Source: a virus. From it: DNA of 32,007 nucleotides. A program made the position numbers and the translations under genes. The notes beneath the pieces are model-generated. The model saw nothing but the letters and a program-made list of their open reading frames with translations. It had not been told where the DNA came from and did not search any database. Of this stretch, positions 1 through 20,192 are shown piece by piece; position 1 is the stretch's first letter; the number at the start of each line of letters is the position of its first letter. Where the stretch lies: UHGV virus genome UHGV-1480848. One strand, 5' to 3'.

Positions 1-18
1 ATATAAAGAGGTAAATCA

Positions 19-177
19 TTTGATACTGCTGAAAAATCCGGGAGGAAAGTGGATCAAACGGGATTTGATGGGATAAAACAAACAGTTATGACGTAAAACA
101 GTGTTATGCGCACAACATGTGATTTGATACTACTGTCGCAAAGAAAGCTAAAAACGAAAAAATATTTGATACTACTG
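19..177 (+). repeat. Three direct copies of 13-mer TTTGATACT(G/A)CTG; putative transposase end-binding sites (L1/L2/L3-like)
   Basis: Copies seen at 19-31, 123-135 and 165-177, each followed by an A-rich tract; bases 32-70 resemble the Mu left-end sequence CCGGGAGG...GATGGGAT as I recall it. Confidence 0.6.
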
Positions 178-234
178 ATTTCTGCGATTTTAACGTTTTA
201 AACAGGTTAAAAAACCAGCCGCGGGCTATTGGAA

Positions 235-819
235 TTAGCCCGCCTTCGATTCTAAACTACTTGAGAGTTTATCGCTTTCAATTTCTGCCAAAATCTCTCT
301 AACTCTTTCATCCGATAAATGATCTAAAAGTAGAGCTGCTGCACGTTTTCGTCCTTCAAGTTGGATTAGTTCTTGATTCTCTGGTTCAAGTAACCGTGAC
401 AAGTACTTAGCTCCATTTAGCGCGAGGATTTTTGATAATCGCTCTGCCTCTGATGCTTCTAAAGCACTTAGTATAGCAAGAAGGCGCTGTAGCGTTATAT
501 CTAGGGGCAATTGGACGTTTTCATCTATTTTAGGTGATATTGGTTCTATATCCTCCTTGCCAAAAACAAGCCAATCAATGCTCACCCCTTCTGCAAAAGC
601 AATCTGACCAGCTACTTGTAGAGATGGTGTCGCATCTTTCTCAAAGTAGTTGTTAAGTGTTGAGAACGGTAGCCCCCACGCCTTCGCCACGGCAGTCTTG
701 GAGCGCCCGCGCATTAACATGGCTAGGCGCTCTTTAATGCTTTCTTTTTGAAACACAGGAAAAGAAAAATCACTTTCTTTTTCAGTGCTTCTTTCTTTTC
801 TGTTAACTATATGATTCAT
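235..819 (-). CDS. Prophage repressor (c-like), HTH DNA-binding protein
   Basis: Only leftward gene, divergent from ner as in Mu; HTH-like segment SKTAVAKAWGLPFSTLNNY. Start taken at internal ATG (MNHIV...) because the ORF-track N-terminus is an implausible hydrophobic extension; alternative start 870. Confidence 0.7.
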   Translation of the reverse strand: MNHIVNRKERSTEKESDFSFPVFQKESIKERLAMLMRGRSKTAVAKAWGLPFSTLNNYFEKDATPSLQVAGQIAFAEGVSIDWLVFGKEDIEPISPKIDENVQLPLDITLQRLLAILSALEASEAERLSKILALNGAKYLSRLLEPENQELIQLEGRKRAAALLLDHLSDERVREILAEIESDKLSSSLESKAG

Positions 820-959: not shown

Positions 960-1196
960 ATGATGTCTATAAATGAAGTTGTTAAACAGGACTGGCACCC
1001 CGCGCATGTTGTCGCGGCGGTGCATGTAAAAGGTTTTACTTTACGCTCTCTGTCCATTGAAGCCGGTTTAAACCAGGATTCTTTAAAGAATGCCCTGTAC
1101 CGCAAATGCCCAAAATATGAGCGCATTATTGCTGATGCTATTGGTGTTGCTCCGGAGGAGATCTGGCCCAGCCGTTACGCTCGTAAGGTGGTATAA
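960..1196 (+). CDS. ner: Ner-like DNA-binding protein (negative regulator of early transcription)
   Basis: Translation carries Ner/Nlp-family motifs (DWH..V.A, IIA.A.G..PE.IWPSRY); ATG at 960 preceded by AAGGA; ORF-track start 924 is GTG without a good RBS. Confidence 0.85.
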   Translation: MMSINEVVKQDWHPAHVVAAVHVKGFTLRSLSIEAGLNQDSLKNALYRKCPKYERIIADAIGVAPEEIWPSRYARKVV

Positions 1197-1198
1197 AA

Positions 1199-3286
1199 AT
1201 GTTTGTATCAGTTAATGAGCTTGTAGGGCTACCAGGTATGCCGGGAACTGCGCAAGGGGTGCGGTATTCCATAAGGAAACTGGCCTCATCTGAGCATTTC
1301 AGGCGCAAACGTGCGGGTTCAAAAACCATTGAATACAGCATCGACTGCCTCCCTCCGATTACACAACGGGCGTTACGTGAGCGACATGTAGCTCAACTGA
1401 TGGCAAGCGCCCCGCAGGAGATAACTACCCAGCCTCCTGTAAAGCGTGAACGCAAACAAAATGTTGTACAGCCTGTTGAGGCATATCGCGGTTCGCCACA
1501 ATTGGTAGAAGAGCGTCTGAATGCGCTTACGGAAAATCAACGTAAAGTTGCAGAAGCGCGCATTGCTCTTGTCTGTGAAGTTCTACGAATTAGCCAGGAG
1601 CCGGGATTCAGTTGTGCCAGCGCTATACGTTTTATTGTGTCGCGGTTAGCACAGGGTAACCTGGAAGAACGCCTGGAATCTTTGGTCATTACTGCTAATG
1701 CCCGTAAAGGAAAAGAGCGAACTCTGAGCGCAATTACGCTCAAACGTTGGATAGCTGCGTTTAACAAAGCACAGAATGCCGCAGAACGACTGCTGTTACT
1801 GGCACCAGGAAAGCGCGACGAAATAAAACCGGAAGAAATTAGCTGGCTGCCTGAATTTCTGGCGCAGTATCGTCAGGCTAACGGCAGGCCTATGTCTGAA
1901 GCCTATGAGGATTTTGTCGCTGATTGGCAGCGTCGCCATGCGGACGAACCATACATGCTGGAGGTGATGCCTTCCTATGATGTTGTCCGGTATGCCATGA
2001 AAAAACTGCCGGAAGTGGTGAAACAAAAAGGGCGCGTTACCGGCAGTGAATACCGTCAGCTTGAAGGATTCACCCGCCGCGACTGGACAGCTATGCCGGT
2101 GAATTATGTCTGGATTGGTGACGGTCACGGTATGAAGCTGAAATGTGCGCATCCGGTTCACGGGCGTCCATTTTCACCGGAAGTTACGTTTGTGATCGAC
2201 GGTGGAACCCGGTTTGTGGTTGGCTGGAGTCTTGATCTTGCGGAGAACGTGTTCGCTGTTGCCGGGGCGATACAACACGGCATTCGCAATCATGGAAAAC
2301 CATTCCTGTATTACTCGGATAATGGTTCCGGTGAAACGGCAGATATGCTGGATAAAGAGATCGTCGGGATTCTGCCCCGTCTGGGGATTAACCACCCCAC
2401 CGGTATTGCGGGAAATCCGCAGGGACGCGGCATTATTGAACGCCTGAACCGAACATTACCGATGCGTATAGCCAGGAGGTATCGCACCTATTTCGGCAAG
2501 GGTGCTGACCGGGAATCGTTGCGAGTACTTAATCGTGATCTGCGTTCAGCGTTTAATGCCCTGCAACAGGACAAGCCACTGAGCGCCCGTCAGAAAGCCG
2601 CAATGCGCGAGCTGCCGTCCTGGTCAGAACTGATTGAGGCTATCCGTGAGGGGGTGGAGTGGTACAACAACCGCCCACATTCTGAATTGCCGATGAAACC
2701 AAACGGAAAGCATTACAGCCCGGCAGAGTTCAGAAAAAAACGCTTAGCGGAAGAAGACACTGAAATTGAGTGGCTGAGTGATCTTGAGCTGCGCGACATG
2801 TTCCGCCCGATGGTGGAGCGTCCGGTAAGACGCTGCGAAATCCAGTGGCTGAACAATATTTACTACGCGCCAGAGCTGCGTGATGAACATGGTCGCAAAG
2901 TACTTATCAGCTATGACATTCACGATGCCGAGCGAATTACGGTACGCCGTAAGGACGGTAGCTTTATCTGTGAGGCGATATGGAACGGCAATAAACGCGC
3001 AGCCTTTCCTGTCACGGCTGAATATCACAAACAACAGCAGCGTATTAAAGGCATGCGCAAGCGTGCTGAGGAAAAAATTCGTGATGCAGAGGATGAAGGT
3101 ATTCAGATTCTGGAACACAAACAGGCTGAACCCTGGCTGGATAATGTTTATCGCCCGGTTGGTAATACGGTAACCATCCGGCAACAGGATTATGAGGAAG
3201 ATTACGACGAAGATTATGAACGCGATTTCAGGCTGGGTTTGCAAAAACTTGCAGCCATACAGGAACAGGATGATCCGCTGGCCTGA
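1199..3286 (+). CDS. A: DDE transposase, MuA-like
   Basis: 695 aa directly after ner; Mu-transposase-like core (VWIGDGHGMKLK, NHGKPFLYYSDNGS) and acidic C-terminal tail. Confidence 0.93.
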   Translation: MFVSVNELVGLPGMPGTAQGVRYSIRKLASSEHFRRKRAGSKTIEYSIDCLPPITQRALRERHVAQLMASAPQEITTQPPVKRERKQNVVQPVEAYRGSPQLVEERLNALTENQRKVAEARIALVCEVLRISQEPGFSCASAIRFIVSRLAQGNLEERLESLVITANARKGKERTLSAITLKRWIAAFNKAQNAAERLLLLAPGKRDEIKPEEISWLPEFLAQYRQANGRPMSEAYEDFVADWQRRHADEPYMLEVMPSYDVVRYAMKKLPEVVKQKGRVTGSEYRQLEGFTRRDWTAMPVNYVWIGDGHGMKLKCAHPVHGRPFSPEVTFVIDGGTRFVVGWSLDLAENVFAVAGAIQHGIRNHGKPFLYYSDNGSGETADMLDKEIVGILPRLGINHPTGIAGNPQGRGIIERLNRTLPMRIARRYRTYFGKGADRESLRVLNRDLRSAFNALQQDKPLSARQKAAMRELPSWSELIEAIREGVEWYNNRPHSELPMKPNGKHYSPAEFRKKRLAEEDTEIEWLSDLELRDMFRPMVERPVRRCEIQWLNNIYYAPELRDEHGRKVLISYDIHDAERITVRRKDGSFICEAIWNGNKRAAFPVTAEYHKQQQRIKGMRKRAEEKIRDAEDEGIQILEHKQAEPWLDNVYRPVGNTVTIRQQDYEEDYDEDYERDFRLGLQKLAAIQEQDDPLA

Positions 3287-3358: not shown

Positions 3359-4291
3359 ATGACCGATATTAATGATGTTTTCAACACAATTAATGCGCTG
3401 ATTACTGACGGTGTAAAAACACAAAGCGCTATCGCCAAAGAAGCTGGCGTGTCGGAGGCCACTCTTTCTGAACTTCGCAAAGGCCGTTACAAAGGCGATA
3501 CCGAAGGGATGCACAACAAATTACTGATGTGGCATCAGGGCTGGCAGAAAAGTCTGGAGTTGCCCGGCACCCCACAACTTGTGGAAACACAGACCCTGCG
3601 TGATTTGCGTGAACTTTTTCAGACAGTGCGTGTTATGGGGTGTATCAGCGTTCTGGTGGGTGTGCCGGGGGTAGGAAAAACCGTTGCGGCCCGTGAATAC
3701 AGTAACCGCGTATCTAATACCTGGATGGTAACCCTTTCCCCTGCACACTCAACGGTGACGGAATGTCTGCTGGAACTGGCAGACGCGCTGGGAATTGATA
3801 ACCCGCAAAGGAATAAAGGCGCGCTGACCCGTGCCATTCGCAAAAAACTGAACGGTACACGCGGTCTGGTGATTGTGGATGAAGCTGACCACCTGAGCAT
3901 TGACGGGCTGGAACAATTACGTGCCATTCAGGATGCCACCGGAGTCGGGATGGTATTGATTGGTAACCCCAGTCAGTTAGCCAAAGCCACACATCGGGGA
4001 ACGGATGACCTTGCACGTTTGTTCAGTCGTTTCGCCAGGACAAAGCAACTACGTAAAGCCAAAAAGGCTGACGTGGTGGCAATTGCGAAAGCCTGGGGCA
4101 TTGAGGGCGAAGATGAATTATCACTCATGCAGAGCATCGCGGAAAAGCCAGGCGCATTGCGTGTATTAACTCACACGCTGAATCAGGCGTGGCTGGCAGC
4201 CAGCGGGAAAGGCGTTCCTCTGTCCAAAGGCTACATAAAAGCGGCTTTTAAAGAGGTTTACAGCAACCCGAAATTACTGAACTGGTGGTAA
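3359..4291 (+). CDS. B: Transposition ATPase / target DNA activator, MuB-like (AAA+)
   Basis: 310 aa; N-terminal HTH; Walker A GVPGVGKT; Walker B LVIVDEADHL; follows A. Confidence 0.93.
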   Translation: MTDINDVFNTINALITDGVKTQSAIAKEAGVSEATLSELRKGRYKGDTEGMHNKLLMWHQGWQKSLELPGTPQLVETQTLRDLRELFQTVRVMGCISVLVGVPGVGKTVAAREYSNRVSNTWMVTLSPAHSTVTECLLELADALGIDNPQRNKGALTRAIRKKLNGTRGLVIVDEADHLSIDGLEQLRAIQDATGVGMVLIGNPSQLAKATHRGTDDLARLFSRFARTKQLRKAKKADVVAIAKAWGIEGEDELSLMQSIAEKPGALRVLTHTLNQAWLAASGKGVPLSKGYIKAAFKEVYSNPKLLNWW

Positions 4292-4305
4292 GGGGATAAT
4301 AAATA

Positions 4306-4533
4306 ATGATGTCACGAAATATAAAAATGGCAACGGATGCGCAGAACTGGTTACAGGCGCGCGGGAGTCATGTAAATGAATCATATCTCGGCGTGGCGCG
4401 TCCGATTCTTGAAATCACTTACCCACCGGTGGAACTGGTAAAAAACGCGGTCAGAATTATGGAGCATAAGTCCGGGGTGGCCCGTTCTGTATGGACGGCC
4501 CGTTTTAATGGTTGCCAGATAATCTGGAGATAG
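4306..4533 (+). CDS. Hypothetical early protein (occupies the position of Mu kil)
   Basis: 75-aa ORF with AAGGGGA RBS 9 nt upstream; no recognisable motif. Confidence 0.45.
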
Positions 4534-4540
4534 CATTTAA

Positions 4541-4753
4541 ATGATGGTGATAAATATTCACGATAATCTGGGAATCAGTAAGTTAATCAACCTTGATAAT
4601 GTCAGTGTAATGGAAACGACTGTTGAGGGCGGTATTGCTTTTGAATTTATTGATGGTCACCGGCTGGTCGTTCATGTCGGCAACCATCATCACGCAGAAG
4701 ATGTGTTTTGGGAACTTAACAAAATCACAAATGCAACACCCGTTAATCAATAA
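4541..4753 (+). CDS. Hypothetical early protein
   Basis: 70-aa ORF, GGAGA upstream; AT-rich early region. Confidence 0.4.
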   Translation: MMVINIHDNLGISKLINLDNVSVMETTVEGGIAFEFIDGHRLVVHVGNHHHAEDVFWELNKITNATPVNQ

Positions 4754-4760
4754 GCAGGTA

Positions 4761-5036
4761 ATGAAAATGGCAAAAGTAATCTTTGAATTTAACAATACAA
4801 GAAATATTGAGTTTCAGGATAATGGAGGTTTTGCCGTAAATATGAATGTGCGACTGGAAGAATCCTCACCTGAGGACCAGACCGGGCCACATGATGTAAT
4901 GGCAGGCATCATCAAGAGCATGGCTCCTGAAATCATTAAAAAAGCGACCGAGGAGTTGTTGAAATCAGCCAGGGAGCTTGGGCTGGAAGCCGAGGGGGAA
5001 TTATTCAGCTATAACCCGAATGCAGCCAGACATTAA
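4761..5036 (+). CDS. Hypothetical early protein
   Basis: Start chosen at ATG 4761 (MKMAKV...) just after the stop of the previous gene; the ORF-track start 4623 would overlap that gene. Confidence 0.45.
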   Translation: MKMAKVIFEFNNTRNIEFQDNGGFAVNMNVRLEESSPEDQTGPHDVMAGIIKSMAPEIIKKATEELLKSARELGLEAEGELFSYNPNAARH

Positions 5037-5056
5037 TTCACAAAGGAACGCTGACA

Positions 5057-5476
5057 ATGAACGTCAAAATCCGAAATGAAATTCAGGCATTAATCCGAAT
5101 TCAGGAACGCAATAACAACGGTGGTGAATTACGCGAGTTTATTTGCGCCCGAAAAGTTGATGATTGTGGTGAAAAGACTTACCTGATTGCTTTCGACCAT
5201 TACAGCATCTGTGCGCGTTATTGCGGCGAAAGCATATCCCGCGCCATTGCATTTGGCGGTGCGTTCAACGTGGATTTATGGGAGTACGTCATGGACCGGG
5301 AATACATCTGCGCATCAGACCCTGAAGCCCGTGAAATGTGGCAGCGTATCTGGCGCGATTACCGGTTAATGGCAAAAGGCTGGGCGCGCTGCTGTTATTC
5401 CTCGCTTGCCCTGAAAGCGGTTCAGTTATCGCTGCGGCATATTCCGGCATCACTGCGCGAGCCTCTGCTGTACTGA
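5057..5476 (+). CDS. Hypothetical early protein, Cys-rich
   Basis: 139 aa; AAGGAA RBS 8 nt upstream; several Cys (CARK..DDCG, CARYCG, ARCCY). Confidence 0.5.
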   Translation: MNVKIRNEIQALIRIQERNNNGGELREFICARKVDDCGEKTYLIAFDHYSICARYCGESISRAIAFGGAFNVDLWEYVMDREYICASDPEAREMWQRIWRDYRLMAKGWARCCYSSLALKAVQLSLRHIPASLREPLLY

Positions 5477-5776
5477 ATGGTGGCTGACATGAAGTGTAAT
5501 CGTAAGCGCTGGTCACGCGAAGACCGGGAATTTATCGAAGCCAACGTCGGGAAAATGACCGTTGAAGAAATGGCGGAAAAACTGAAAGTCGCCACAACCG
5601 CCCTCCGGGCACATGCCAGAAGGCACGGAATATCATTGTGTGTATACCGAATCAGTGAACACGACAAATATTTATGTCGTGAACTTTATAAAGAAGGGCT
5701 GGATATTCATGTCATTGCCCGAAAGATGGAATTAAGCAATCGAGCTGTATCCAGCATTGTATACAGCGGATATTAA
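5477..5776 (+). CDS. Putative DNA-binding protein with two HTH-like segments
   Basis: 99 aa; segments MTVEEMAEKLKVATTALRAHARRHG and LDIHVIARKMELSNRAVSSIVY look like helix-turn-helix units; alternative start 5489. Confidence 0.5.
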   Translation: MVADMKCNRKRWSREDREFIEANVGKMTVEEMAEKLKVATTALRAHARRHGISLCVYRISEHDKYLCRELYKEGLDIHVIARKMELSNRAVSSIVYSGY

Positions 5777-5795
5777 TTAACAGGAGCTTTAATTT

Positions 5796-6320
5796 ATGGC
5801 TAAACCAGCAAAACGCATCAAAAGTGCCGCAGCGGCTTATGTGCCACAAAACCGCGATGCGGTGATTACCGATATTAAACGCATCGGGGATTTACAGCGC
5901 GAAGCATCACGTCTGGAAACGGAAATGAATGATGCCATCGCGGAAATTACGGAGAAATTTGCAGCCCGGATTGCACCGATTAAAACCGATATTGAAACCC
6001 TTTCAAAAGGCGTTCAGGGATGGTGTGAAGCGAACCGCGACGAACTGACGAACGGCGGCAAAGTGAAGACGGCGAATCTTGTCACCGGTGATGTATCGTG
6101 GCGGGTCCGTCCACCATCAGTAAGTATTCGTGGTATGGATGCAGTGATGGAAACGCTGGAGCGTCTTGGCCTGCAACGCTTTATTCGCACGAAGCAGGAA
6201 ATCAACAAGGAGGCGATTTTACTGGAGCCAAAAGCGGTCGCAGGTGTTGCCGGAATTACGGTTAAATCGGGAATTGAAGATTTTTCCATTATTCCGTTTG
6301 AACAGGAAGCCGGTATTTAA
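5796..6320 (+). CDS. gam: Host-nuclease inhibitor Gam (DNA-end-binding, Ku-like)
   Basis: 174 aa; sequence closely matches Mu Gam as I remember it (MAKPAKRIKSAAAAYVPQNRDAVITDIKRIGDLQREA...); CAGGAG RBS. Confidence 0.9.
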   Translation: MAKPAKRIKSAAAAYVPQNRDAVITDIKRIGDLQREASRLETEMNDAIAEITEKFAARIAPIKTDIETLSKGVQGWCEANRDELTNGGKVKTANLVTGDVSWRVRPPSVSIRGMDAVMETLERLGLQRFIRTKQEINKEAILLEPKAVAGVAGITVKSGIEDFSIIPFEQEAGI

Positions 6321-6418
6321 TACCACCATTAATATTTAATTAATTCACATTCTTTTAATTATGGCGCGATGCGTCAGGGGATTGCTCGCGCCTGAAACAT
6401 ATTACAGAGGAATAAAAC

Positions 6419-6958
6419 ATGGTTGATGCAAAAATTCTGAATGGTGTCAGCACATTATTACGGGCTTACGGACGCCTGACCTGTGGAGTTCTGGCTGAAA
6501 AAATGAATATGCTGCCCTCGTCAATGGTGTATTTCCTGCGTGATGCGGTTGATGCCGGAGTGCTCACCGAATGCAACGGATTTTATGACGTACCGCGTCC
6601 CCGTACAGAGCAGCCTGTAAGACGAAACGCAACTGAGCAGCCTGCTGTTGATGATGCGGTGTGGTGCAACTGGCGTCGCTCATTACCCTGGGTGGAAGGT
6701 AATACCATCCCTGCGCTGGCAAAAGAGTTTGCGACGGGCGTGCTGACCTGTGAGTCAGTCCACATTGTTGCTGAGGTGGATAACAGAATGTGCGAACAGG
6801 GAATGCCCCGTTTTGTGATGGCTTATATCGATATCCGGCTGGGGCGTTTTATTTGCAGTTCAAGCGCCTGGAATATCACCGACCATGTACTGCGTTATCT
6901 CATCATTGATTTTTCATCAGCACCGGGTGTGGTGCAGGAGGCTGGTTGTGAAATTTGA
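6419..6958 (+). CDS. Hypothetical protein with possible N-terminal winged-helix domain
   Basis: 179 aa; AGAGGA RBS; the winged-helix call for the N-terminal ~50 aa is inferred from its amphipathic pattern only. Confidence 0.5.
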   Translation: MVDAKILNGVSTLLRAYGRLTCGVLAEKMNMLPSSMVYFLRDAVDAGVLTECNGFYDVPRPRTEQPVRRNATEQPAVDDAVWCNWRRSLPWVEGNTIPALAKEFATGVLTCESVHIVAEVDNRMCEQGMPRFVMAYIDIRLGRFICSSSAWNITDHVLRYLIIDFSSAPGVVQEAGCEI

Positions 6959-7652
6959 AGACTGGGGTATTGATAAAAGTTGTGGCCGGGACGTCCTGGT
7001 GTACAAAAGCTGTAGCGTGATTGAAGGAGAAGATGCCTGGCAGGTTCTGGATATACTTCGTTCTGCTTTATGCAGAGCTGGCTATGTTACGCCAGCGTCA
7101 GTTAATGGCGGAACTGCCACTACCTGTATCAGAAAGCAACTTTATAGTTTTTATACAGCCTACAACCGATGGTTAAAGAATGGGGCAATGGAGACGGGCG
7201 ATGATGTATTTACCCGGGCTGCCGGATTATGTGCCAATGCTTACGATTATTTTGAATCAACCGGTGCAGACAGTGAAGCCGCATTAGAACAATTACATGC
7301 GGACTTTATCTCAGCAGGGCTGAATGAGAAATTGCCATTTAACCGGGACAGCAAACATTACAGAAACGAAAGCAAATTGGCCAGATGCCACCAGAATTCA
7401 GCACGTGTGGCATGGGTTGAAAAACACTGTATTAGTTCTGATTCAGAAATAACGGGGAAAAAGACAGTCGGTGAAACATCGTATTCGTGGCTGGGGAAAT
7501 TTACCACGGTGAAACAGGAATGCCCGACCTGCGGTAATGAATCCCCTGAATATCTGAAAGAGTGTCCCCATTGTGGCGGGCAGAAATGCAACCACTGTGA
7601 TATGGGCGATGACACGGCGTGCATGAATTGTGAAGGTGAACAGAATGAATAA
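6948..7652 (+). CDS. Hypothetical protein with C-terminal 4x CxxC zinc-ribbon
   Basis: GTG start at 6948 preceded by AGGAGG; C-terminus CPTCG..CPHCG..CNHC..CMNC. ORF-track start 6885 lies inside the upstream gene. Confidence 0.5.
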   Translation: MKFEDWGIDKSCGRDVLVYKSCSVIEGEDAWQVLDILRSALCRAGYVTPASVNGGTATTCIRKQLYSFYTAYNRWLKNGAMETGDDVFTRAAGLCANAYDYFESTGADSEAALEQLHADFISAGLNEKLPFNRDSKHYRNESKLARCHQNSARVAWVEKHCISSDSEITGKKTVGETSYSWLGKFTTVKQECPTCGNESPEYLKECPHCGGQKCNHCDMGDDTACMNCEGEQNE

Positions 7653-7953
7653 TGGCGTATTTACAAAATCCGAGGAACTGACAGCGTTGTTGACGGCGGC
7701 TGGTTTTCCTGAAGATGTGATCGGTAACTTTGTGGCGGCGGTATATGCCCCGTCTTATAACCGTGCAATTGATGAGGTCATGGCGTACCGACTCGGCATT
7801 GTTGCTGAGTCACTGAGTCCTCACTGGATTATTGAAAATCTCCGCGCTATTGCTGATGGCAACGATAAATCAGCAGCCGTTGCTGCACTGGATGTGTTAC
7901 GGCAAATGAGTCTGAAATTTTATCCTGAATTTATTCTGAGGGCCGCAAAATGA
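7645..7953 (+). CDS. Hypothetical early protein
   Basis: ATG 7645 overlaps the upstream stop by 8 nt; ends in ATGA overlap with the next gene. Confidence 0.45.
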   Translation: MNNGVFTKSEELTALLTAAGFPEDVIGNFVAAVYAPSYNRAIDEVMAYRLGIVAESLSPHWIIENLRAIADGNDKSAAVAALDVLRQMSLKFYPEFILRAAK

Positions 7954-8252
7954 ACAATGAAGATAAATTTACTCCCCTTAATATTGATAACGTCATGGCT
8001 GAAAAAAGGATGCTGGAACGTGTTCGCGCTATCGTTGAATATGGTATTAAGCATGAACTCACCGCCAGAGAAGTTCGTGACATTATCAACCGCGAAATGA
8101 ATCGTCTGGAAACATTAGTGGCACTGCAAAATGAAACAGCCCGCGAGGAGTACATCCGCCGCAGGCTGGGGTTATCAGACCAGGATATTGTTACTGACGC
8201 TCATGTGTTTGAGGCTTTTGAGATCCGTCAGCATCTGGGCCTTACGAACTGA
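7950..8252 (+). CDS. Hypothetical early protein
   Basis: 100 aa; ATGA start/stop overlap with the previous gene. Confidence 0.45.
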   Translation: MNNEDKFTPLNIDNVMAEKRMLERVRAIVEYGIKHELTAREVRDIINREMNRLETLVALQNETAREEYIRRRLGLSDQDIVTDAHVFEAFEIRQHLGLTN

Positions 8253-8303
8253 TGTGTAAATTCAGGCGGTGTTGCAGCACCGCCTCTTTCCGGAGGTACG
8301 ATC

Positions 8304-8855
8304 ATGAGTCGCACATCCCTGATTAAATTAATCCATGTTGCCCGTCGGGAGCTACAACTCGACGACGACACTTACCGCGCTTTTCTGATGCAGAAAACGG
8401 GCAAAATCAGTTGCCGCGAGCTTACGGTTACGCAACTGGAACAGGTGCTCGATGCCATGAAAGAACGCGGCTTTAAGAAGCTGAATAAATACCCCCGTCG
8501 CCGCTTTAAGGGACATGTCACACCCCGCGAGAAGGTGTATAAAATCTGGCAGCAGATGGCAGAAGACGGTTTTATTACCGATGGCGGTGATGTGGCGCTG
8601 GACAGATATGTTCAACGCCTGACCGCGAAACGCAACGGCGGACAGGGTGTTTCCACACTGGCGTGGTGTCATGGCGACACGCTGCTGACAGTCCTCGAAA
8701 CACTCAAGCAGTGGCACATCCGCTGTATTCGTGAAGCCTTTTCCCGTCACGGGCTTCCGTTGCCGGTCAGTCCGTCCGGTCGTGAACTGCGCGGCTATGA
8801 TGCCATGACGGCGGCTTATGCCCATGCCAGAAAGACACGGAGGATGGCACAATGA
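8304..8855 (+). CDS. gemA: GemA-like protein (Mu gp16 family)
   Basis: 183 aa immediately upstream of mor as in Mu; GGAGG RBS. Confidence 0.75.
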   Translation: MSRTSLIKLIHVARRELQLDDDTYRAFLMQKTGKISCRELTVTQLEQVLDAMKERGFKKLNKYPRRRFKGHVTPREKVYKIWQQMAEDGFITDGGDVALDRYVQRLTAKRNGGQGVSTLAWCHGDTLLTVLETLKQWHIRCIREAFSRHGLPLPVSPSGRELRGYDAMTAAYAHARKTRRMAQ

Positions 8856-9241
8856 CGGAAGATTTATTTGGTGATTTGCAGGATGACACCATCCTGGCAC
8901 ATCTTGACAATCCCGCAGAGGATACGTCACGCTTTCCGGCACTGCTGGCGGAGCTGAACGATTTACTACGCGGGGAATTGTCCCGGCTGGGTGTTGATCC
9001 TGCCCATTCACTGGAGATTGTTGTGGCTATCTGTAAGCATCTGGGCGGCGGTCAGGTCTACATTCCACGCGGTCAGGTTCTGGACTCGCTGATTCGGGAT
9101 TTGCGTATCTGGAATGATTTTAACGGTCGCAACGTCAGCGAACTGACCACCCGTTATGGTGTCACTTTCAATACGGTTTACAAGGCCATTCGCCGGATGC
9201 GACGGCTGAAATACCGCCAGTACCAGCCCTCACTTCTGTAA
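8852..9241 (+). CDS. mor: Middle operon regulator Mor (Mor/C family transcription activator)
   Basis: 129 aa; shares HLGGGQVYIPRG and FNGRN motifs with the downstream C paralog (FLGGRQFYIPCG, FNGRN). Confidence 0.9.
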   Translation: MTEDLFGDLQDDTILAHLDNPAEDTSRFPALLAELNDLLRGELSRLGVDPAHSLEIVVAICKHLGGGQVYIPRGQVLDSLIRDLRIWNDFNGRNVSELTTRYGVTFNTVYKAIRRMRRLKYRQYQPSLL

Positions 9242-9246
9242 ACAGT

Positions 9247-9271
9247 AAAGCCGGTTAATCCGGCTTTTTTT
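9247..9271 (+). terminator. Rho-independent terminator ending the early operon
   Basis: AAAGCCGG-TTAAT-CCGGCTTT hairpin followed by a T-run, 6 nt after the mor stop. Confidence 0.8.
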
Positions 9272-9318
9272 ACGCCCTCAATATCCTGTGATGAATAACC
9301 GTACCGGGGGAAATCATC

Positions 9319-9537
9319 ATGGGTAAAGGCTGGAATGCATCCTTTCATCTTGGCAGACGTGAGCGGCTGCGTCAGGAGGTTTTGCACCGTGTCGCCGGTG
9401 GGCCACGGCCTGCGCCCCGCGACTATACCGGTCATGATGGCACCCACGGCAGTTATTACATGAAAGGCTGGCAGTCAGTTGATATGCCGGAAATTCTTCA
9501 TCATTGCCTGCTTTACAGGGAGAAACATGATGTCTGA
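9319..9537 (+). CDS. Hypothetical middle-operon protein
   Basis: 72-aa ORF between the early terminator and C; no motif recognised. Confidence 0.35.
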   Translation: MGKGWNASFHLGRRERLRQEVLHRVAGGPRPAPRDYTGHDGTHGSYYMKGWQSVDMPEILHHCLLYREKHDV

Positions 9538-9892
9538 GCGTTCTGCTCGTCAGTGGCCTGATTTTTTATCGGTGGTGTTACTGGCGCTGTTATTGTGGAT
9601 AAGTCTGTTTTGTGGCTGGCGCGCGCTGATGTTTTGCTGTGCCTCGGTTTTCAGTGTTGCTTTATGTGTTGCCGGTGATTGTCTGGATGCGCTGATAATG
9701 AGCTGCCGGGTGCCTGAACATTTTGCCCGGTTCGTCTGGCCTCTGACCTGGCTGGGGAGTCTGTCCGGGCTGGGATTAGCCGTGATGGCAACGTCTCAAC
9801 TGAAAACGGGTCCTGAGCATGTCATCTGGGCGCTGGCCGGATTGCTGACGTTCTGGCTCTCCTTTCGTTTTCGCGCTCGTCTGTTCGGGTAA
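9527..9892 (+). CDS. Putative integral membrane protein (about 4 TM segments)
   Basis: ATG 9527 preceded by AGGGAG; hydrophobic stretches VVLLALLLWISLF, ALMFCCASVFSVALCVA, LTWLGSLSGLGLAVMA, VIWALAGLLTFWL. Confidence 0.55.
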   Translation: MMSERSARQWPDFLSVVLLALLLWISLFCGWRALMFCCASVFSVALCVAGDCLDALIMSCRVPEHFARFVWPLTWLGSLSGLGLAVMATSQLKTGPEHVIWALAGLLTFWLSFRFRARLFG

Positions 9893-9901
9893 AGGGGCAC
9901 C

Positions 9902-10021
9902 ATGTACAGAAAATTCAGTGATGAATGTTTCGGGCCGTCCACGCTGATTAGTGCGATAAAAGTGATTGCCCTTGTGGTTCTGATAACCATCAGTGCCGTG
10001 GTGTATCTTTCTGTCTGTTAA
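9902..10021 (+). CDS. Putative 39-aa single-TM peptide (below ORF-track size cutoff)
   Basis: Hand-translated: MYRKFSDECFGPSTLISAIKVIALVVLITISAVVYLSVC; weak AGGGG RBS; fills the gap between the membrane protein and C. Confidence 0.3.
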   Translation: MYRKFSDECFGPSTLISAIKVIALVVLITISAVVYLSVC

Positions 10022-10033
10022 CCGGGGGAAAAT

Positions 10034-10456
10034 ATGCAGCATGATTTATTTGAACACGATCCGGCAATTCGCCAGTTAATCGGACATATTGATAACATCC
10101 CGGCCCCGGAACTGGAATCACGCTGGCCCCGTTCGGTGGTTGATCTGATTGATGTTCTGGAAAACGAACTGAAACGCCAGAACGTCAGCAATCCCCGTGA
10201 GCTTGCCCGTAAACAGGCCGTTGCCCTGTCCTGTTTTCTGGGCGGACGGCAGTTTTACATCCCCTGCGGCGATACGATCCTGACCGCGTTACGCGACGAT
10301 TTGCTTTACTGCCAGTTCAATGGTCGTAACATGGAAGAACTGCGTCGCCAGTATCGCCTGTCCCAGCCGCAGATCTACCAGATTATTGCCCGCCAGAGAA
10401 AGCTGCATACACGACGTCATCAGCCTGATCTGTTCTCACCTGAAAGCCAGAAATAA
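10034..10456 (+). CDS. C: Late gene transcription activator C (Mor/C family)
   Basis: 140 aa; paralog of Mor by shared motifs; precedes the lysis and morphogenesis genes. Confidence 0.9.
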   Translation: MQHDLFEHDPAIRQLIGHIDNIPAPELESRWPRSVVDLIDVLENELKRQNVSNPRELARKQAVALSCFLGGRQFYIPCGDTILTALRDDLLYCQFNGRNMEELRRQYRLSQPQIYQIIARQRKLHTRRHQPDLFSPESQK

Positions 10457-10477
10457 CCGGCATCCTGCCGGTTATTT
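10451..10477 (+). terminator. 12-bp perfect hairpin overlapping the C stop codon; likely middle-transcript terminator
   Basis: AAATAACCGGCA-TCC-TGCCGGTTATTT; U-rich 3' arm; overlaps the TAA of C. Confidence 0.6.
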
Positions 10478-10480
10478 CCT

Positions 10481-10547
10481 GTCACCATAATCCCGCACCT
10501 GCCATCTGATTTTTTAGACTGCCATCAGAGCATTTTTTCAGGGAAGC
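10481..10547 (+). promoter_or_regulatory. Candidate C-dependent late promoter upstream of lys
   Basis: Intergenic region between the C terminator and lys; carries CCCGCACCT at 10493-10501 (also found upstream of I) and direct repeat TGCCATC at 10500-10506 and 10521-10527. Confidence 0.45.
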
Positions 10548-11066
10548 ATGATGGCGGGGATACCAAAAAAACTGAAAGCCGCACTGCTGGCGGCAACGAT
10601 TGCCGGTGGCAGTGTGGGTGGTTATCAGGAAATGACCCGTCAGTCTCTGATCCATCTGGAAAATATCGCTTATATGCCTTACCGCGATATTGCCGGTGTG
10701 CTTACGGTCTGTGTGGGACATACCGGGCCGGATATCGAAATGCGCCGTTACAGCCATGCGGAGTGTATGGCTCTTCTCGACAGTGATTTAAAACCGGTTT
10801 ATGCGGCAATCGATCGTCTTGTCAGGGTGCCGCTGACGCCATATCAGAAAACGGCGCTGGCAACGTTTATTTTCAACACCGGTGTTACCGCATTCAGTAA
10901 ATCAACGCTGCTGAAAAAACTCAATGCCGGTGATTACGCCGGAGCGCGTGACCAGATGGCCCGCTGGGTGTTTGCCGCAGGCCATAAATGGAAAGGACTG
11001 ATGAACCGTCGCGAAGTGGAAATGGCTATCTGGAATATCAGGGGGGCGGATGACCTTCGCCAGTAA
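10548..11066 (+). CDS. lys: SAR endolysin (T4-lysozyme-like muramidase with N-terminal signal-anchor-release domain)
   Basis: 172 aa; N-terminus KKLKAALLAATIAGGSVGGY is Gly/Ala-rich and weakly hydrophobic, typical of SAR domains; closely resembles Mu Lys as remembered. Confidence 0.85.
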   Translation: MMAGIPKKLKAALLAATIAGGSVGGYQEMTRQSLIHLENIAYMPYRDIAGVLTVCVGHTGPDIEMRRYSHAECMALLDSDLKPVYAAIDRLVRVPLTPYQKTALATFIFNTGVTAFSKSTLLKKLNAGDYAGARDQMARWVFAAGHKWKGLMNRREVEMAIWNIRGADDLRQ

Positions 11067-11436
11067 AAGTTTACTGCTGGCAGCCGTGTTTGCCGCCGTT
11101 CTGTCCGGGGTGTTGTGGCACAGGCTGGACAGCACCCGCCACGATAACCAGACGCTGCGCCGTGAATTACAGACGGAGCAACAGGCCCGCCACACTGCTG
11201 AATGGTTGTTACACGGTCAGGAACAGACGATGCAGGTATTTTCCGCTATCCGTGCCGCAAATCGTGCCGCACGGCTGGCAGATGAGACAGAACATCATGA
11301 TGCAAAAGAAAAAATTACAACCGCCATTACCGGTGACAATTGCAGCACTCGTCCTGTGCCTGCCGTTGCTGCTGACAGGTTGCGGGAACTCGAAAAACGC
11401 ACCCGTGCCATCGGTGGTGATCCTGCCCGAAACTGA
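11050..11436 (+). CDS. Inner-membrane spanin component (Rz-like i-spanin)
   Basis: N-terminal TM LLLAAVFAAVLSGVLW followed by a charged helical region; overlaps the end of lys. Confidence 0.7.
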   Translation: MTFASKSLLLAAVFAAVLSGVLWHRLDSTRHDNQTLRRELQTEQQARHTAEWLLHGQEQTMQVFSAIRAANRAARLADETEHHDAKEKITTAITGDNCSTRPVPAVAADRLRELEKRTRAIGGDPARN

Positions 11437-11638
11437 TGCAGAACTGACGGAAGCCACGCCCGTTCCGCCCATGCCACAGCCCCTGACGTGGGGTGCATCC
11501 CTTCTCTGGAATGCTGACCTGTTGATGGCGCTCGGGCAGTGCAACCGCGACAAGGCATCAGTCCGGGAACAGGAGACCCGAAGGAAAGAAATTTATGAAC
11601 GAAGACCAGAACCGGGCGGTGGCGCTGCTGCTCGCTGA
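11297..11638 (+). CDS. Outer-membrane lipoprotein spanin component (Rz1-like o-spanin)
   Basis: Starts in a different frame inside the i-spanin gene; lipoprotein signal with lipobox LLTGC; Pro-rich mature region; start could be 11282 or 11300. Confidence 0.65.
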   Translation: MMQKKKLQPPLPVTIAALVLCLPLLLTGCGNSKNAPVPSVVILPETDAELTEATPVPPMPQPLTWGASLLWNADLLMALGQCNRDKASVREQETRRKEIYERRPEPGGGAAAR

Positions 11639-11789
11639 ACTCTGGCAGGGGGATACCCGTGATATTCCCCGCCCGGCGGCGTATGACCCGCCTGTATTGT
11701 GTGCCGGTTGCGGTCGTGAGCTGCGGCCTGATGTGCTGAGACAGCAGCCGATGGCGAACTACTGCCACTGGTGCCGTGGAGCAGAATAA
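11595..11789 (+). CDS. Small zinc-finger protein (TraR/DksA-like C4 motif)
   Basis: 64 aa; CAGC...x17...CHWC; AAGGAAAG RBS; ends in TAATG overlap with the next gene. Confidence 0.5.
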   Translation: MNEDQNRAVALLLAELWQGDTRDIPRPAAYDPPVLCAGCGRELRPDVLRQQPMANYCHWCRGAE

Positions 11790-12088
11790 TGGATTTGATT
11801 TCAGTTTTAGCGTTATGGCCTTACCTGTTGCCTGTTGTGGCCGGTGGGGCCGTCTGGGCGATGCGTCGTAGTTTTGCCAGCACCGAGCGTGTGGAGCGTC
11901 TTGAAAACCGGATGACCGAAATGGAAACCCGCTACGCCAGCATCCCTGGCACAGAAGATGTACACGAAATGCGCCTGCGAATTGCAGAGCTGTCCGGCGA
12001 TATCCGGGTGCTGTCCCAGCGGGTGCAGTCATTTTCCCATCAACTGGAGCTGCTGCTTGAAAACGCAGTAAACCGGAGTAATTCATGA
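11789..12088 (+). CDS. Membrane-anchored coiled-coil protein, Mu gp25-like (releasin candidate)
   Basis: N-terminal TM ISVLALWPYLLPVVAGGAVWA then coiled-coil; position matches Mu gp25. ORF-track start 11771 is GTG; ATG 11789 preferred. Confidence 0.6.
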   Translation: MDLISVLALWPYLLPVVAGGAVWAMRRSFASTERVERLENRMTEMETRYASIPGTEDVHEMRLRIAELSGDIRVLSQRVQSFSHQLELLLENAVNRSNS

Positions 12089-12375
12089 TTAACGATATTC
12101 TGACCGAAGACCGTCGTCTGGTCATCCTGCGTTCCCTGATGGACTGCAATAACGAAGCCAACGAATCCATCCTTCAGGACTGTCTGGATGCATACGGACA
12201 CAACGTTTCCCGTGATGTGGTTCGCGGCCAGATTGACTGGCTGGCAGAGCAGCAACTGGTCACCGTGGAAAACCTGCGCGGCTTTTATGTCGTAACGCTG
12301 ACCTCCCGTGGTCAGGATGTGGCGGAAGGCCGTGCCCGCATTGCCGGTGTCAAGCGTCCGCGTCCCCGTGCATGA
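12085..12375 (+). CDS. Hypothetical protein (positional analog of Mu gp26)
   Basis: 96-aa ORF with ATGA overlap to the previous gene. Confidence 0.5.
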   Translation: MINDILTEDRRLVILRSLMDCNNEANESILQDCLDAYGHNVSRDVVRGQIDWLAEQQLVTVENLRGFYVVTLTSRGQDVAEGRARIAGVKRPRPRA

Positions 12376-12962
12376 CAGGAGGCGTGATGGACAGGAAAAC
12401 ACGGGGACGGGCTTCAAAAGTGGATTTACTGCCGGAAAATGTACGTAAAACGCTGCATGAAATGCTGCGTGATAAGGCGATCCCACAGGCCCGCATTCTT
12501 GAAGAAATTAACGCACTGATTGAAGACGCTGGCCTGCCGGATGAGATGAAACTCTCCCGTTCAGGTCTGAACCGTTACGCGACGAACGTCGAGCAGGTAG
12601 GCCATAACCTGCGGCAGATGCGTGAAATGACGTCAGCACTGACCGCAGAACTTGGCGACAAGCCAATGGGTGAAACCACAAAGCTGATTCTGGAAATGGC
12701 CCGCAGCCAGCTTTTTAAGGCCATGATGCGGCAAATCGAAAACCCGGAATCTGACGTGGATATTGACCTGCTGAAAAATGCCATGCTGGCGGCACAGCGT
12801 CTGGAATCCACGGCAATGTCCAGCCACCGGCGCGAGAAAGAAATCCGCCAGGCATTCGCAGAAGAAGCGGCAAACGCCGTCAGTGAAGAACTGCGCGGGC
12901 AGGATGGCATCAGCGAAGAGCTGGAGCAGCGTATCCGTGATGTGCTGCTGGGTAAGGCATGA
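12372..12962 (+). CDS. Mu gp27-like protein (putative terminase small subunit / DNA-recognition component)
   Basis: Immediately upstream of terminase large subunit; alternative start ATG 12387 after AGGAGG. Confidence 0.65.
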   Translation: MTGGVMDRKTRGRASKVDLLPENVRKTLHEMLRDKAIPQARILEEINALIEDAGLPDEMKLSRSGLNRYATNVEQVGHNLRQMREMTSALTAELGDKPMGETTKLILEMARSQLFKAMMRQIENPESDVDIDLLKNAMLAAQRLESTAMSSHRREKEIRQAFAEEAANAVSEELRGQDGISEELEQRIRDVLLGKA

Positions 12963-12969
12963 GAGGGTT

Positions 12970-14625
12970 ATGAACACCAGAGAAAACAATCTTAAAGCCC
13001 TTCATGCCCCCCGAAAAATCGACCTGCGTAAGGAAGCCGAACTGCTGGGCGTGAATATCGTTACCGATATCGGGGAAGCACAGCCTCGCAATGAACCGGT
13101 TTTTCTGGGTTATCAGCGCCGCTGGTTTGAGGATGAAAGCCAGATTTGTATTGCTGAAAAATCCCGTCGTACCGGTCTGACATGGGCCGAAGCGGGCCGC
13201 AATGTCATGACGGCAGCAAAGCCGCGTCGCCGTGGCGGTCGCAACGTTTTTTATGTGGGTTCCCGTCAGGAAATGGCGCTGGAATACATTGCCGCCTGTG
13301 CCCTGTTTGCCCGCGCCTTTAACCAACTGGCAAAGGCTGACGTATGGGAGCAGACCTTCTGGGACAGCGACAAAAAAGAAGAAATCCTCACTTATATGAT
13401 CCGTTTCCCTAACAGCGGATTTAAGGTGCAGGCGCTGTCAAGCCGTCCGTCTAACCTGCGTGGTTTGCAGGGAGACGTGGTGATTGATGAGGCGGCATTT
13501 CATGAAGCCCTGGACGAACTCCTGAAAGCGGCTTTTGCTCTCACCATGTGGGGTGCCCGCGTGCGGATCATATCGACACATAACGGCGTCGATAACCTGT
13601 TTAACCAGTACATTCAGGATGCGCGCGAGGGGCGCAAGGATTACAGCGTTCACCGCATCACGCTGGATGATGCCATCGCTGACGGGTTGTACCGACGTAT
13701 CTGTTACGTCACGAATCAGCCGTGGTCGCCGGAAGCGGAAAAAGCCTGGCGTGATGGCCTGTACCGGAATGCGCCGAATAAAGAGAGTGCCGACGAGGAA
13801 TACGGCTGCATTCCCAAAAAATCCGGGGGCGCTTATCTGTCACGCGTGCTGATTGAAGCCGCCATGACGCCAGTGCGGGATATCCCGATTCTGCGTTTTG
13901 AAGCCCCGGACGATTTTGAATCGCTGACACCACAAATGCGCCACGGCATCGTTCAGGACTGGTGTGAACAGGAGCTGCTCCCGTTGCTCGATGCGCTGTC
14001 GCCGCTCAATAAACACGTACTGGGCGAAGACTTTGCACGCCGTGGCGACCTGACGGTGTTTGTGCCGCTTGCCATCACTCCTGACTTACGCAAACGCGAA
14101 TGTTTCCGCGTGGAGCTGCGTAATGTGACCTATGACCAGCAGCGACAAATCCTTTTATTCATTCTGTCCCGTTTGCCCCGTTTTACCGGCGCTGCATTTG
14201 ATGCCACCGGTAACGGCGGTTATCTGGCAGAAGCCGCCCGTCTGATTTATGGCCCGGAGATGATCGACTGCATCAGTCTGACCGCCGCCTGGTATCAGGA
14301 GTGGATGCCGAAACTGAAAGGCGAGTTTGAAGCGCAGAACATCACGATTGCCCGGCATCAGACCACACTCGATGACCTGCTTCATATCAAGGTGGACAAA
14401 GGTATTCCGCAGATTGATAAGGGGCGCACAAAAGATGAAAGCGGTAAAGGCCGACGACATGGTGACTTTGCCGTGGCGCTCTGTATGGCTGTCAGGGCGT
14501 CTTATATGAATGGTTTTGTTATCGACGAGGACAGCATACAGGCGCTGCCACCACGCCACCGTGGTGATGATGTTGATAACGATGATTTTGATGATTATCA
14601 CCAGTTTGAACGAGGGGGCTGGTAA
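12970..14625 (+). CDS. Terminase large subunit
   Basis: 551 aa from ATG 12970 (GAGAGGG RBS); ATPase-like VFYVGSRQ and nuclease-like C-terminal half. ORF-track start 12778 overlaps the upstream gene. Confidence 0.85.
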   Translation: MNTRENNLKALHAPRKIDLRKEAELLGVNIVTDIGEAQPRNEPVFLGYQRRWFEDESQICIAEKSRRTGLTWAEAGRNVMTAAKPRRRGGRNVFYVGSRQEMALEYIAACALFARAFNQLAKADVWEQTFWDSDKKEEILTYMIRFPNSGFKVQALSSRPSNLRGLQGDVVIDEAAFHEALDELLKAAFALTMWGARVRIISTHNGVDNLFNQYIQDAREGRKDYSVHRITLDDAIADGLYRRICYVTNQPWSPEAEKAWRDGLYRNAPNKESADEEYGCIPKKSGGAYLSRVLIEAAMTPVRDIPILRFEAPDDFESLTPQMRHGIVQDWCEQELLPLLDALSPLNKHVLGEDFARRGDLTVFVPLAITPDLRKRECFRVELRNVTYDQQRQILLFILSRLPRFTGAAFDATGNGGYLAEAARLIYGPEMIDCISLTAAWYQEWMPKLKGEFEAQNITIARHQTTLDDLLHIKVDKGIPQIDKGRTKDESGKGRRHGDFAVALCMAVRASYMNGFVIDEDSIQALPPRHRGDDVDNDDFDDYHQFERGGW

Positions 14626-16163: not shown

Positions 16164-17463
16164 TCTGGCGTATGCCGCACGCCTCCCGCCAAAGGAGGCT
16201 GTCGCGTATTTCCGCGCCAAAGGCTACAACATCACCTGGAACTGGTACGAACAACTGGCAGACGCGCACGCCCGCGCCTTTACCGTTGCCAAAGCCACCC
16301 GGATGGATGTCCTGACCACAATCCGTGAGGAAGTGGAGCGGGCTGTCAGTGAAGGCATCACCCGTGAGGAATTTACCCGCACACTGGCCCCCCGGCTGCA
16401 AAAACTCGGATGGTGGGGAAAACAAATCATCGTGGATGCAGAGGGAAACGCAAAGGTAATCGAGCTGGGCAGTCCGCGTCGTCTGGCAACCATTTATAAC
16501 GTCAATACCCGTACGGCGTATGGGGCAGGACGTTATGCGCAGATGATGAATACCGCAGATTTGTATCCGTACTGGCAGTATGTTGCCGTTATGGATGGCA
16601 GAACACGCCCGGAACATGCGCGGCTGCACAATATGGTTTTCAGGTATGACGACATTTTCTGGCAGACGCATTACCCGCCCAATGGCTGGAACTGCCGCTG
16701 TCGCGTCCGGGCGGTGTCTGCGGCCCGCATGAAAGAACTGGGGCTACAGGTCAGTTATGGTGCGTCATTCATGAACACCCGCGAAGTGGATGCCGGTACG
16801 GATGAAAGCACCGGAGAGATTTTCCGCACATCGTCAACCACATTTGACAACGGTCGGGTAAAAATGACGCCGGATGTAGGCTGGTCATATAACCCTGGTT
16901 CGGCGGCATTTGGTACGGATCAGGCACTGATTCGAAAACTGGTGGAAATTCACGACGCGCAGCTGCGTGAGCAGGTTGTGCAGACACTGAATAACAGCCG
17001 GGAGCGTCAGCTTGCTTTTTCCCTCTGGCTTAAACGCCTGGCAGGATCACGTCAGGCCGGTCATGAAATCCGGGCGCTGGGTTTTATGACGGGATCCGTG
17101 GCTGAAGCCGTATATCAGCGCACCGGGAATATGCCAGCCCGTTTGCTTGTAATGAACGGGAAAAGTCTGGCGACCACTGCTGATGCCGCCCTGAAACCGG
17201 AAGATTTACAGCGTCTGCCGTCGCTGATGGCAAAACCACAGGCGGTATTGTGGGACAGGGAGAACCACCAGTTGCTGTATGTTGTGGCAACCCGCGACGG
17301 CACTGCAAAAGTTGTGGTCAGAACATCGCAGGCTGTCAGCAAACAGAATGACCGGGCGGATGTGCTGGTCAGTATCAGCCGCGTATCTGCACTGTCGCTT
17401 GAAGCCGCGATTGCTGACGGGATGATTGACATACTGGAGGGGCATGTGGAGGTGAATAAGTGA
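16144..17463 (+). CDS. F: Head morphogenesis protein, Mu F-like
   Basis: MuF-family motifs (RPEHARLHNMVF, YPPNGWNCRCRV); ATG 16144 overlaps the portal end by 20 nt; alternative GTG 16108. Confidence 0.8.
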   Translation: MPQQTIDLAYAARLPPKEAVAYFRAKGYNITWNWYEQLADAHARAFTVAKATRMDVLTTIREEVERAVSEGITREEFTRTLAPRLQKLGWWGKQIIVDAEGNAKVIELGSPRRLATIYNVNTRTAYGAGRYAQMMNTADLYPYWQYVAVMDGRTRPEHARLHNMVFRYDDIFWQTHYPPNGWNCRCRVRAVSAARMKELGLQVSYGASFMNTREVDAGTDESTGEIFRTSSTTFDNGRVKMTPDVGWSYNPGSAAFGTDQALIRKLVEIHDAQLREQVVQTLNNSRERQLAFSLWLKRLAGSRQAGHEIRALGFMTGSVAEAVYQRTGNMPARLLVMNGKSLATTADAALKPEDLQRLPSLMAKPQAVLWDRENHQLLYVVATRDGTAKVVVRTSQAVSKQNDRADVLVSISRVSALSLEAAIADGMIDILEGHVEVNK

Positions 17464-17471
17464 GTCTTGAT

Positions 17472-20126: not shown

Positions 20127-20134
20127 CCGTCATT

Positions 20135-20160: not shown

Positions 20161-20192
20161 CCTGATTTAAAGGAAAAGGAGGAGCATGTGTT

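Follow-up and report, generated by a model that had tools for sequence, protein, structure and literature searches.

DDE transposition is best known from phage Mu, which serves as the reference and whose ends, TG/CA termini and 5-bp target duplication are textbook features. The Mu repressor and the Iα domain of the MuA transposase are homologous and share operator/enhancer sites, while packaging of Mu DNA begins at the left end, with pac located within ~60 bp of that end. Three sites are present at each end of the Mu genome, at unequal spacings (PMC3145075). The TG-CA dinucleotides were kept in all Mu- and B3-like phages described before the transposable prophages of Leptospira, which are of Mu size and carry TA at both termini, a feature regarded there as unusual; the target duplication is 5 bp in Mu and 6 bp in B3 (PMC8705779). 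For DMS3-type phages, a 5-bp duplication has been described (PMC11406979). Two further groups are relevant here, namely an element within a Stx phage (LC727895) that resembles Sp18 of O157:H7 Sakai (PMC10132054), and the Yersinia phages vB_YpM_5 and vB_YpM_6, which were obtained as infectious Mu-like phages in a study that does not discuss the ends of the vB_YpM phages (PMC10434027). Within the searchable literature we found no description of the ends of the lineage treated below (vB_YpM_5 ends, a 4-bp Mu-like duplication, the JNE122137 element), and no binding or transposition experiments on it.

The window, i.e., the whole stretch of 32,007 bp that was analyzed, corresponds to an entire metagenome contig (JGI Ga0495776_119503). 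A first-pass annotation had pointed to a 13-mer repeated at its left end with a Mu-like spacing. Comparison with related prophages and phages indicates that the three 13-mers are very probably the L1, L2 and L3 sites (attL) of the phage's own DDE transposase A, encoded in a module related to Sp18 on a backbone that is Mu. The features referred to in the text are the following (window coordinates):

1..1, no strand: one non-phage base (host or variable-end), being A, C or T in aligned insertions, with conservation starting at base 2
2..12, + strand: left terminus TATAAAGAGGT with the inferred cleavage position; 5'-TA, bottom-strand 3' end ...TA-3'
13..32, + strand: L1, predicted terminal transposase site; core TTTGATAC at 19-26, 13-mer at 19-31
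32..76, + strand: L1-L2 spacer segment, candidate pac; 37/45 positions identical to Mu nt 25-69, ungapped
117..136, + strand: L2, predicted transposase site; 13-mer at 123-135
159..178, + strand: L3, predicted transposase site; 13-mer at 165-177
221..243, - strand: terminator-like hairpin and T tract; 8-pair stem with 6 GC pairs, then GGCTGGTTTT; overlaps the repressor stop codon
235..870, - strand: immunity repressor of the CI/XRE type; Pfam Phage_CI_repr and HTH_3
960..1196, + strand: ner-like gene (HTH_35, Pfam 4.4e-25); product 46% identical to Mu Ner
1199..3286, + strand: transposase A, 695 aa; Pfam HTH_Tnp_Mu_1 and Mu-transpos_C; DDE residues D308, D374 and E414
3359..4291, + strand: B protein, AAA+ target-DNA activator; Pfam Phage-MuB_C and AAA_22; 44% identical to MuB (BLASTP)
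4294..32007, + strand: rest of the genome; five blocks of 95-98% nucleotide identity to Mu 4300-31987 (AF083977) by blastn

Repeats, termini and target duplication

An exact pattern search over the 32,007 bp returned three matches to TTTGATACTRCTG, all on the + strand (19-31, 123-135 and 165-177), in agreement with the first-pass annotation; beyond the first 177 bp of the 32-kb window, no exact copy is present. The copy at 19-31 reads TTTGATACTGCTG, and those at 123-135 and 165-177 read TTTGATACTACTG. Allowing up to two mismatches added one further match in the window, at 15723, and a repeat finder lengthened the copies to 20 nt (13-32, 117-136 and 159-178; 75-85% identity). The 8-mer core TTTGATAC was counted four times on both strands of the window, versus 0.84 expected from shuffles, and three of these four occurrences fall within positions 1-177. 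The clustering of the left-end repeats is far above chance. Their start-to-start spacings are 104 and 42 bp, and the cores begin at nt 19, 123 and 165, compared with nt 22, 127 and 167 for CGAAA in Mu, so the likeness to the spacing of the Mu left end was rightly perceived, as was the difference in repeat sequence, CGAAA-type sites being absent at L1-L3. An Rfam scan of the window gave no family above threshold, and a sigma-70 promoter scan of positions 1-1250 gave no hits.

The element shared family-wide approximates AAWNATTTGATACYR, a consensus built from 18 sites; in this comparison the CTG that forms the final 3 nt of the 13-mer proved to be lineage-specific. A prophage with a transposase annotated as WP_000498156.1, an accession shared with another strain, carries TTTGATACTACCA as L2 and TTTGATACTACGC as L3.

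When the window was aligned with five E. coli prophages, vB_YpM_5 and a metagenome contig (L027), similarity started at base 2. From this base, the left end reads TAT[A/G][A/G]AGAGGTAAATCATTTGATAC, window positions 5-6 being variable (A/G) between strains. The host/phage junction thus lies at window base 2 in seven independent contexts, and not far upstream, and because of this the window opens 1 bp outside the phage. The earlier proposal that it starts at or just inside the prophage end was therefore correct as to the end but not as to the side. Bases 1-20, ATATAAAGAGGTAAATCATT, contain no TG, as had been remarked, and this absence is genuine because the terminus is TA. The host loci of the prophages are patD, ydcO, glpT, rlmB, an epimerase gene, tyrR and an alanine racemase gene, a variety expected of transposition. 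The right edge of the window lies 21 bp beyond the gixL crossover (31974-32007, TTATCCAAAACGTCGGTTTACAGGAAAC), and the boundary of the Mu G segment, annotated at 31966, corresponds to window position 31986. Breaks of the contig at the phage end and at gixL are expected, given variable host flanks and an invertible G segment.

GenBank already contains members of the lineage, which E. coli, Salmonella and Shigella commonly carry; the same A protein was present on 10 contigs. The Yersinia phages vB_YpM_5 and vB_YpM_6 are near-identical in sequence and share their left end with the window, and when the left 1.2 kb was compared at the DNA level with phages in distant mode, these two alone were retrieved, with Mu not among them. 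The vB_YpM_5 record (MT374853; L006:4573-4732) was deposited as circular, and in it the right end ...GCGCGCTTTA is followed by 91 bp of non-phage DNA and then by the left end TATGAAGAGG..., placing the true linear ends at about 4641 and 4733. All 17 features annotated under the match and its flanks are hypothetical proteins except hin. The contig L027, from human gut (ENA), encodes an identical transposase and shows, in its positions 1-127, a host joint between ...GCTGTTCGA and TATAAAGAGG; its flank presumably derives from a gene resembling a LysR-type regulator gene of E. coli.

No right-end repeat copies are present inside the window, as the contig halts at gixL. The right end was taken from prophages that are 96-98% identical to the window over the matched stretches, with gaps in the match at 4533-4880, 6942-8259 and 9529-9902. 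These close relatives diverge from Mu past the mom stop codon and end in ...AGTATCAAA-N26-GGTATCAAAAAAAATTCAAAACGGTATCAAATGATTTTGCGCGCTTTA, the terminus itself being ...GGTATCAAATGATTTTGCGCGCTTTA. From the terminus inward, the right end reads TAAAGCGCGCAAAATCATTTGATAC and the left end TATAAAGAGGTAAATCATTTGATAC, in the same register; likewise, the left terminus of the window shares its register with TAAAGCGCGCA, the reverse complement of the relatives' right end. The inverted right-end copies that the first-pass annotation had suggested looking for do exist in the close relatives: counted from the right terminus, three TTGATA cores start at nt 19, 41 and 76, facing those that start at nt 19, 123 and 165 from the left.

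This arrangement extends to more distant relatives. TTGATA(C/T) cores are found at right nt 19/41/76 and left nt 19/114/166 in the Sp18-like prophage, and at right nt 19/41/75 and left nt 19/89/131 in Klebsiella phage Kp4866-3. Six sites per genome, all pointing inward, were counted in the window lineage, the Sp18-like prophage and Kp4866-3, and in the three TTGATA-type relatives the terminal TTGATA core starts at this distance of 19 nt on the left and on the right alike. An inverted motif with terminal copies equidistant from the ends, as at Mu-type att ends, was thus observed in the close prophages and in three distant relatives.

One of the prophages, that of E. coli 1290 (L020, NZ_CP184007.1 167779-203862), lacks gin and has its second tail-fibre assembly gene reduced to a fragment, for which reasons its G region is fixed; one of its early genes is frameshifted.

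The insertions from which the target duplication could be read are listed below:

E. coli S6: in patD, duplication TTAA
E. coli 1290: in ydcO, duplication GTGA
E. coli WS1933D: in glpT, duplication AGCC
E. coli RM8082: in an epimerase gene, duplication CGAA
E. coli TD225-C4: in rlmB, duplication GATA
E. coli STEC346: in an alanine racemase gene, duplication ATTC
LC727895 element: in a Stx1a phage, duplication AGAG (4 bp annotated by the depositors, sequence read here)

All seven independent insertions show a duplication of 4 bp, instead of the 5 bp that the first-pass annotation had expected, and two were confirmed against empty sites: with one 4-bp copy removed, the flanks reconstitute uninterrupted ydcO and glpT, matching at 176/176 positions as a single stretch in over 5,000 E. 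coli genomes. These empty-site matches fix the duplication length at 4 bp. A 5- or 6-bp duplication was also considered, and with the boundaries shifted by one base either way the flanks were never equal. A duplicated TA target in the style of Tc1/IS630 was rejected as well, since TA is absent from the point of insertion in the empty ydcO and glpT sites. All six insertions of the window lineage and STEC346 have 5'-TA...TA-3' termini; in the Sp18-like and Klebsiella relatives the left end is TG and the right end ...TA-3'. Sites at the terminus, a short duplication and insertion at many loci are the properties of Mu-type att ends, and all of them are found here.

The transposition module and its Mu backbone

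The match between the window and Mu is interrupted at 4533-5041, 6942-7473 and 7655-7946. Among the late proteins, identity to Mu is 98-100%, with TerS at 100% and TerL at 98%. A blastn comparison of window 1-4293 with Mu gave no match, and BLASTP of the repressor against Mu c gave no significant similarity. As judged from these comparisons, the element is a mosaic, Mu in its middle and late genes but with its transposition and immunity module (ends, repressor, ner, A and B) replaced, and the replacing module derives from a different Mu-like lineage, kin to Sp18-like E. coli prophages. A and B are 78% and 70% identical, respectively, to their counterparts in the Sp18-like element LC727895. In tblastn searches, A reached 56-57% identity with Klebsiella phage Kp4866-3 and Yersinia phage Tongde, 43-48% with VW-6B, SuMu and 3927AP2, and ~31% with D3112-like phages. 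Identity to MuA over the full length was 22% (BLASTP), for which reason the repeats are not MuA sites proper.

Two observations on the immunity region are added here. The hairpin at 221-243 would halt leftward transcription ahead of the L3-L1 sites and the host junction. The repressor is of the CI/XRE type, unlike Mu c, yet the transposase retains a Mu Iα-like winged-helix N-terminus.

The catalytic residues D308 and D374 of A align with MuA D269 and D336, and E414 corresponds to the catalytic Glu in RSV integrase (phmmer); phmmer matches for A comprised RSV integrase and MuA Iα. An AF2 model of residues 1-300, based on a 57-sequence alignment, reached a mean pLDDT of 90.9 and consists of a winged helix (1-69) and helical domains (~93-200 and 217-290), with a low-confidence linker at residues 71-90 (pLDDT 58-59). 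The top PDB matches in Foldseek were the Mu transpososome (4FCY) and the MuA domains Iα (1TNS), Iβ (2EZK) and Iγ (2EZH); the TnsB proteins from Tn7 and CAST elements ranked among the best matches too. The Foldseek E-values are weak (0.0037 to 4), and domains were assigned by rank and target-normalised TM, which was 0.68 for 1TNS, 0.67 for 2EZK and 0.65 for 2EZH. A is thus predicted to carry Iα-, Iβ- and Iγ-like DNA-binding domains. As at Mu-type att ends, genes for a DDE transposase with end-binding domains and for a MuB-like ATPase adjoin the left end.

A prophage of E. coli STEC346 (A at L024:1360-3447) offers the most informative comparison for the link between A and the repeats. Its late genes are 30-50% identical to those of the window, while A, B, the repressor and Ner are 86%, 97%, 82% and 97% identical, respectively. 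Outside residues 61-90 and 121-210, its A is 93-100% identical to the window A, except for 83% at 91-120; identity is 30-40% in residues 61-90 and 121-180 and 73% in 181-210. At the equivalent positions where the window lineage has TTTGATAC, all six end sites of STEC346 read TTCAAGATA(A/G), with cores at right nt 18/40/75 and left nt 18/89/141.

The repeats hence track a short segment of A, and not the terminase or the phage backbone. The combination of Mu-identical late genes with non-Mu end repeats in the window has the same implication, i.e., that the sites follow A rather than the backbone. Residues 61-90 and 121-180 of A include part of the MuA-Iβ-like domain. Residues 121-180 of the window A were aligned by BLASTP to MuA residues ~110-156; these lie inside Iβ if its boundaries in MuA are, as we assume, 77-174. 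The STEC346/window pair has the appearance of a specificity cassette exchanged in nature, and the fact that A residues 61-90 and 121-180 vary in step with the motif lends indirect support to binding of A to the repeats, which we infer. We consider it reasonably probable that the lineage natively has TA-3' termini and a 4-nt stagger, that its end-recognition specificity may reside in a small exchangeable cassette of the Iβ-like domain (~aa 121-180), swapped together with the six sites, and that the whole module is mobile between unrelated Mu-like backbones, having replaced Mu's while a Mu-like pac segment was kept between L1 and L2.

If A works as MuA does, each ~22-bp site would be occupied by A monomers that contact it via their Iβ/Iγ-like domains. 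The consensus used for comparison was what we take to be the 22-bp MuA end-site consensus, its CGAAA half having been checked on the Mu sequence; because the sites of the window mismatch it, details of half-site recognition are not transferable from Mu. L1, R1 and R2 would be synapsed into the transpososome core, again by analogy (PMC3145075), and the terminal site would set the DDE active site 18 nt outside the TTGATA core. Nicking at the 3' ends ...TA-3' of both strands would then be followed by their joining to target phosphates at a spacing of 4 nt, with assistance from the MuB-like protein. Both the assembly order and the roles given to individual sites are modeled on MuA.

The Mu-like spacer segment and other readings of the repeats

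The segment at 32-76 is the sole Mu-like DNA stretch in window 1-4293. Its motif, CCGGGARGA..TGGA....CGGGATYTGATGGGAT, is also present in STEC346 (33/45) and Kp4866-3 (29/45) and absent from the Sp18-like element. Mu pac is, on our assumption, placed at this left-end segment, and the segment probably serves the Mu-identical terminase as the pac site that it requires. A relation between the segment and TerS identity was examined as well and gave no clean fit, the segment being present with a TerS of 46-47% identity (STEC346 and Kp4866-3) and absent with one of 57% (Sp18-like).

That packaging of Mu starts at the left end, with pac lying near it, and that arrays of direct repeats are frequent targets of small terminase subunits, would also suit the repeats themselves as pac, i.e., as recognition sites of the small terminase subunit. 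Such a role is nevertheless highly improbable. TerS and TerL are 100% and 98% identical to those of Mu, yet the TTTGATAC repeats are absent from the Mu end; they also occur in inverted orientation at the right end, where no packaging starts, and they change with the A segment in a prophage with unrelated late genes. The segment at 32-76 is, moreover, the better pac candidate. It is equally hard to credit the repeats as operators for the CI-type repressor or Ner, even though the 3' end of the repressor gene is 60-220 bp away: they are positioned downstream of the repressor stop codon and past the terminator-like hairpin, outside the divergent c-ner promoter region (871-959), and the motif occurs three times at the far right end, adjoining mom. 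In STEC346, the repressor and Ner are 82% and 97% identical to those of the window and the repeat motif is different, a weaker argument in that A alone was scanned for a divergent segment.

The repeats could also be ancestral transposase sites in a dead prophage remnant, no longer functional, a reading in keeping with a contig that lacks the right 4-5 kb and with relatives some of which have frameshifted early genes or a truncated G region. We regard this as very unlikely, since A, B, the repressor and ner are full-length open frames and bases 4-5 are the sole difference between the left end and that of the plaque-forming vB_YpM_5. The break points of the contig coincide exactly with the phage end and gixL, as would be the case for an active, inverting genome inserted at multiple sites, and the occurrence of one A protein on 10 contigs likewise speaks against a remnant.

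The site set is best filed as the cognate ends of an Sp18-related transposition module that displaced that of Mu. A genome that is 96-98% identical to Mu from position 4294 on, yet runs on another transposition module with its own binding sites, TA termini and 4-bp duplication, amounts to a natural swap experiment, through which one can ask what sets the target stagger and the terminal-dinucleotide need in a Mu-type transpososome, and it indicates a candidate specificity cassette in the end-binding domain. The module might also supply a second end/transposase pair orthogonal to mini-Mu tools. In practice, prophage finders keyed to TG...CA and 5-bp repeats will misplace the ends in this E. coli/Salmonella/Shigella group.

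Comparison with known transposable phages

The overall organization is that of Mu. Three sites are present per end, with the terminal one at a fixed short distance from the cleavage point; the left spacings are 104/42 bp in the window lineage versus 105/40 bp in Mu, and the R1-R2 distance is 22 bp in both. The genes c, ner, A and B are adjacent and in the same order, and the window A shares the Iα/Iβ/Iγ, DDE and Mu-transpos_C architecture of the Mu transposase. In contrast, the site sequence AAWNATTTGATACYR is unrelated to that of Mu, in which CGAAA is common to all six sites, and R3 points in the same direction as R1 and R2, whereas it is inverted in Mu. The termini are TA...TA versus TG...CA, and the duplication is 4 bp versus 5 bp. 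The marks of MuA sites in the strict sense (the MuA consensus, TG/CA termini, a 5-bp duplication and a close MuA homologue) are thus all four absent.

With the transposable prophages of Leptospira, the lineage has TA termini in common; those prophages, however, possess a B3/Tn552-type transposase and a 6-bp duplication, whereas here an A of Mu-like domain architecture and a 4-bp duplication are found in enterobacteria. A is nearer to the transposases of D3112/DMS3-like phages, SuMu and Mannheimia phage 3927AP2 (31-44%, tblastn) than to MuA. SuMu and 3927AP2 start with TGTGGGGTACTGA and repeat TTTTTGCATAG, while the window lineage repeats TTTGATAC.

The Sp18-like element shares with the window lineage TTGATAC cores at right nt 19/41/76 and left nt 19, as well as a right terminus ...TA-3' and an annotated 4-bp duplication. 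It differs in its left TG, in L1-L2 and L2-L3 spacings of 95 and 52 bp, and in the absence of the Mu-like 32-76 segment, and the late genes of the Sp18-like prophage are 51-73% identical to those of the window.
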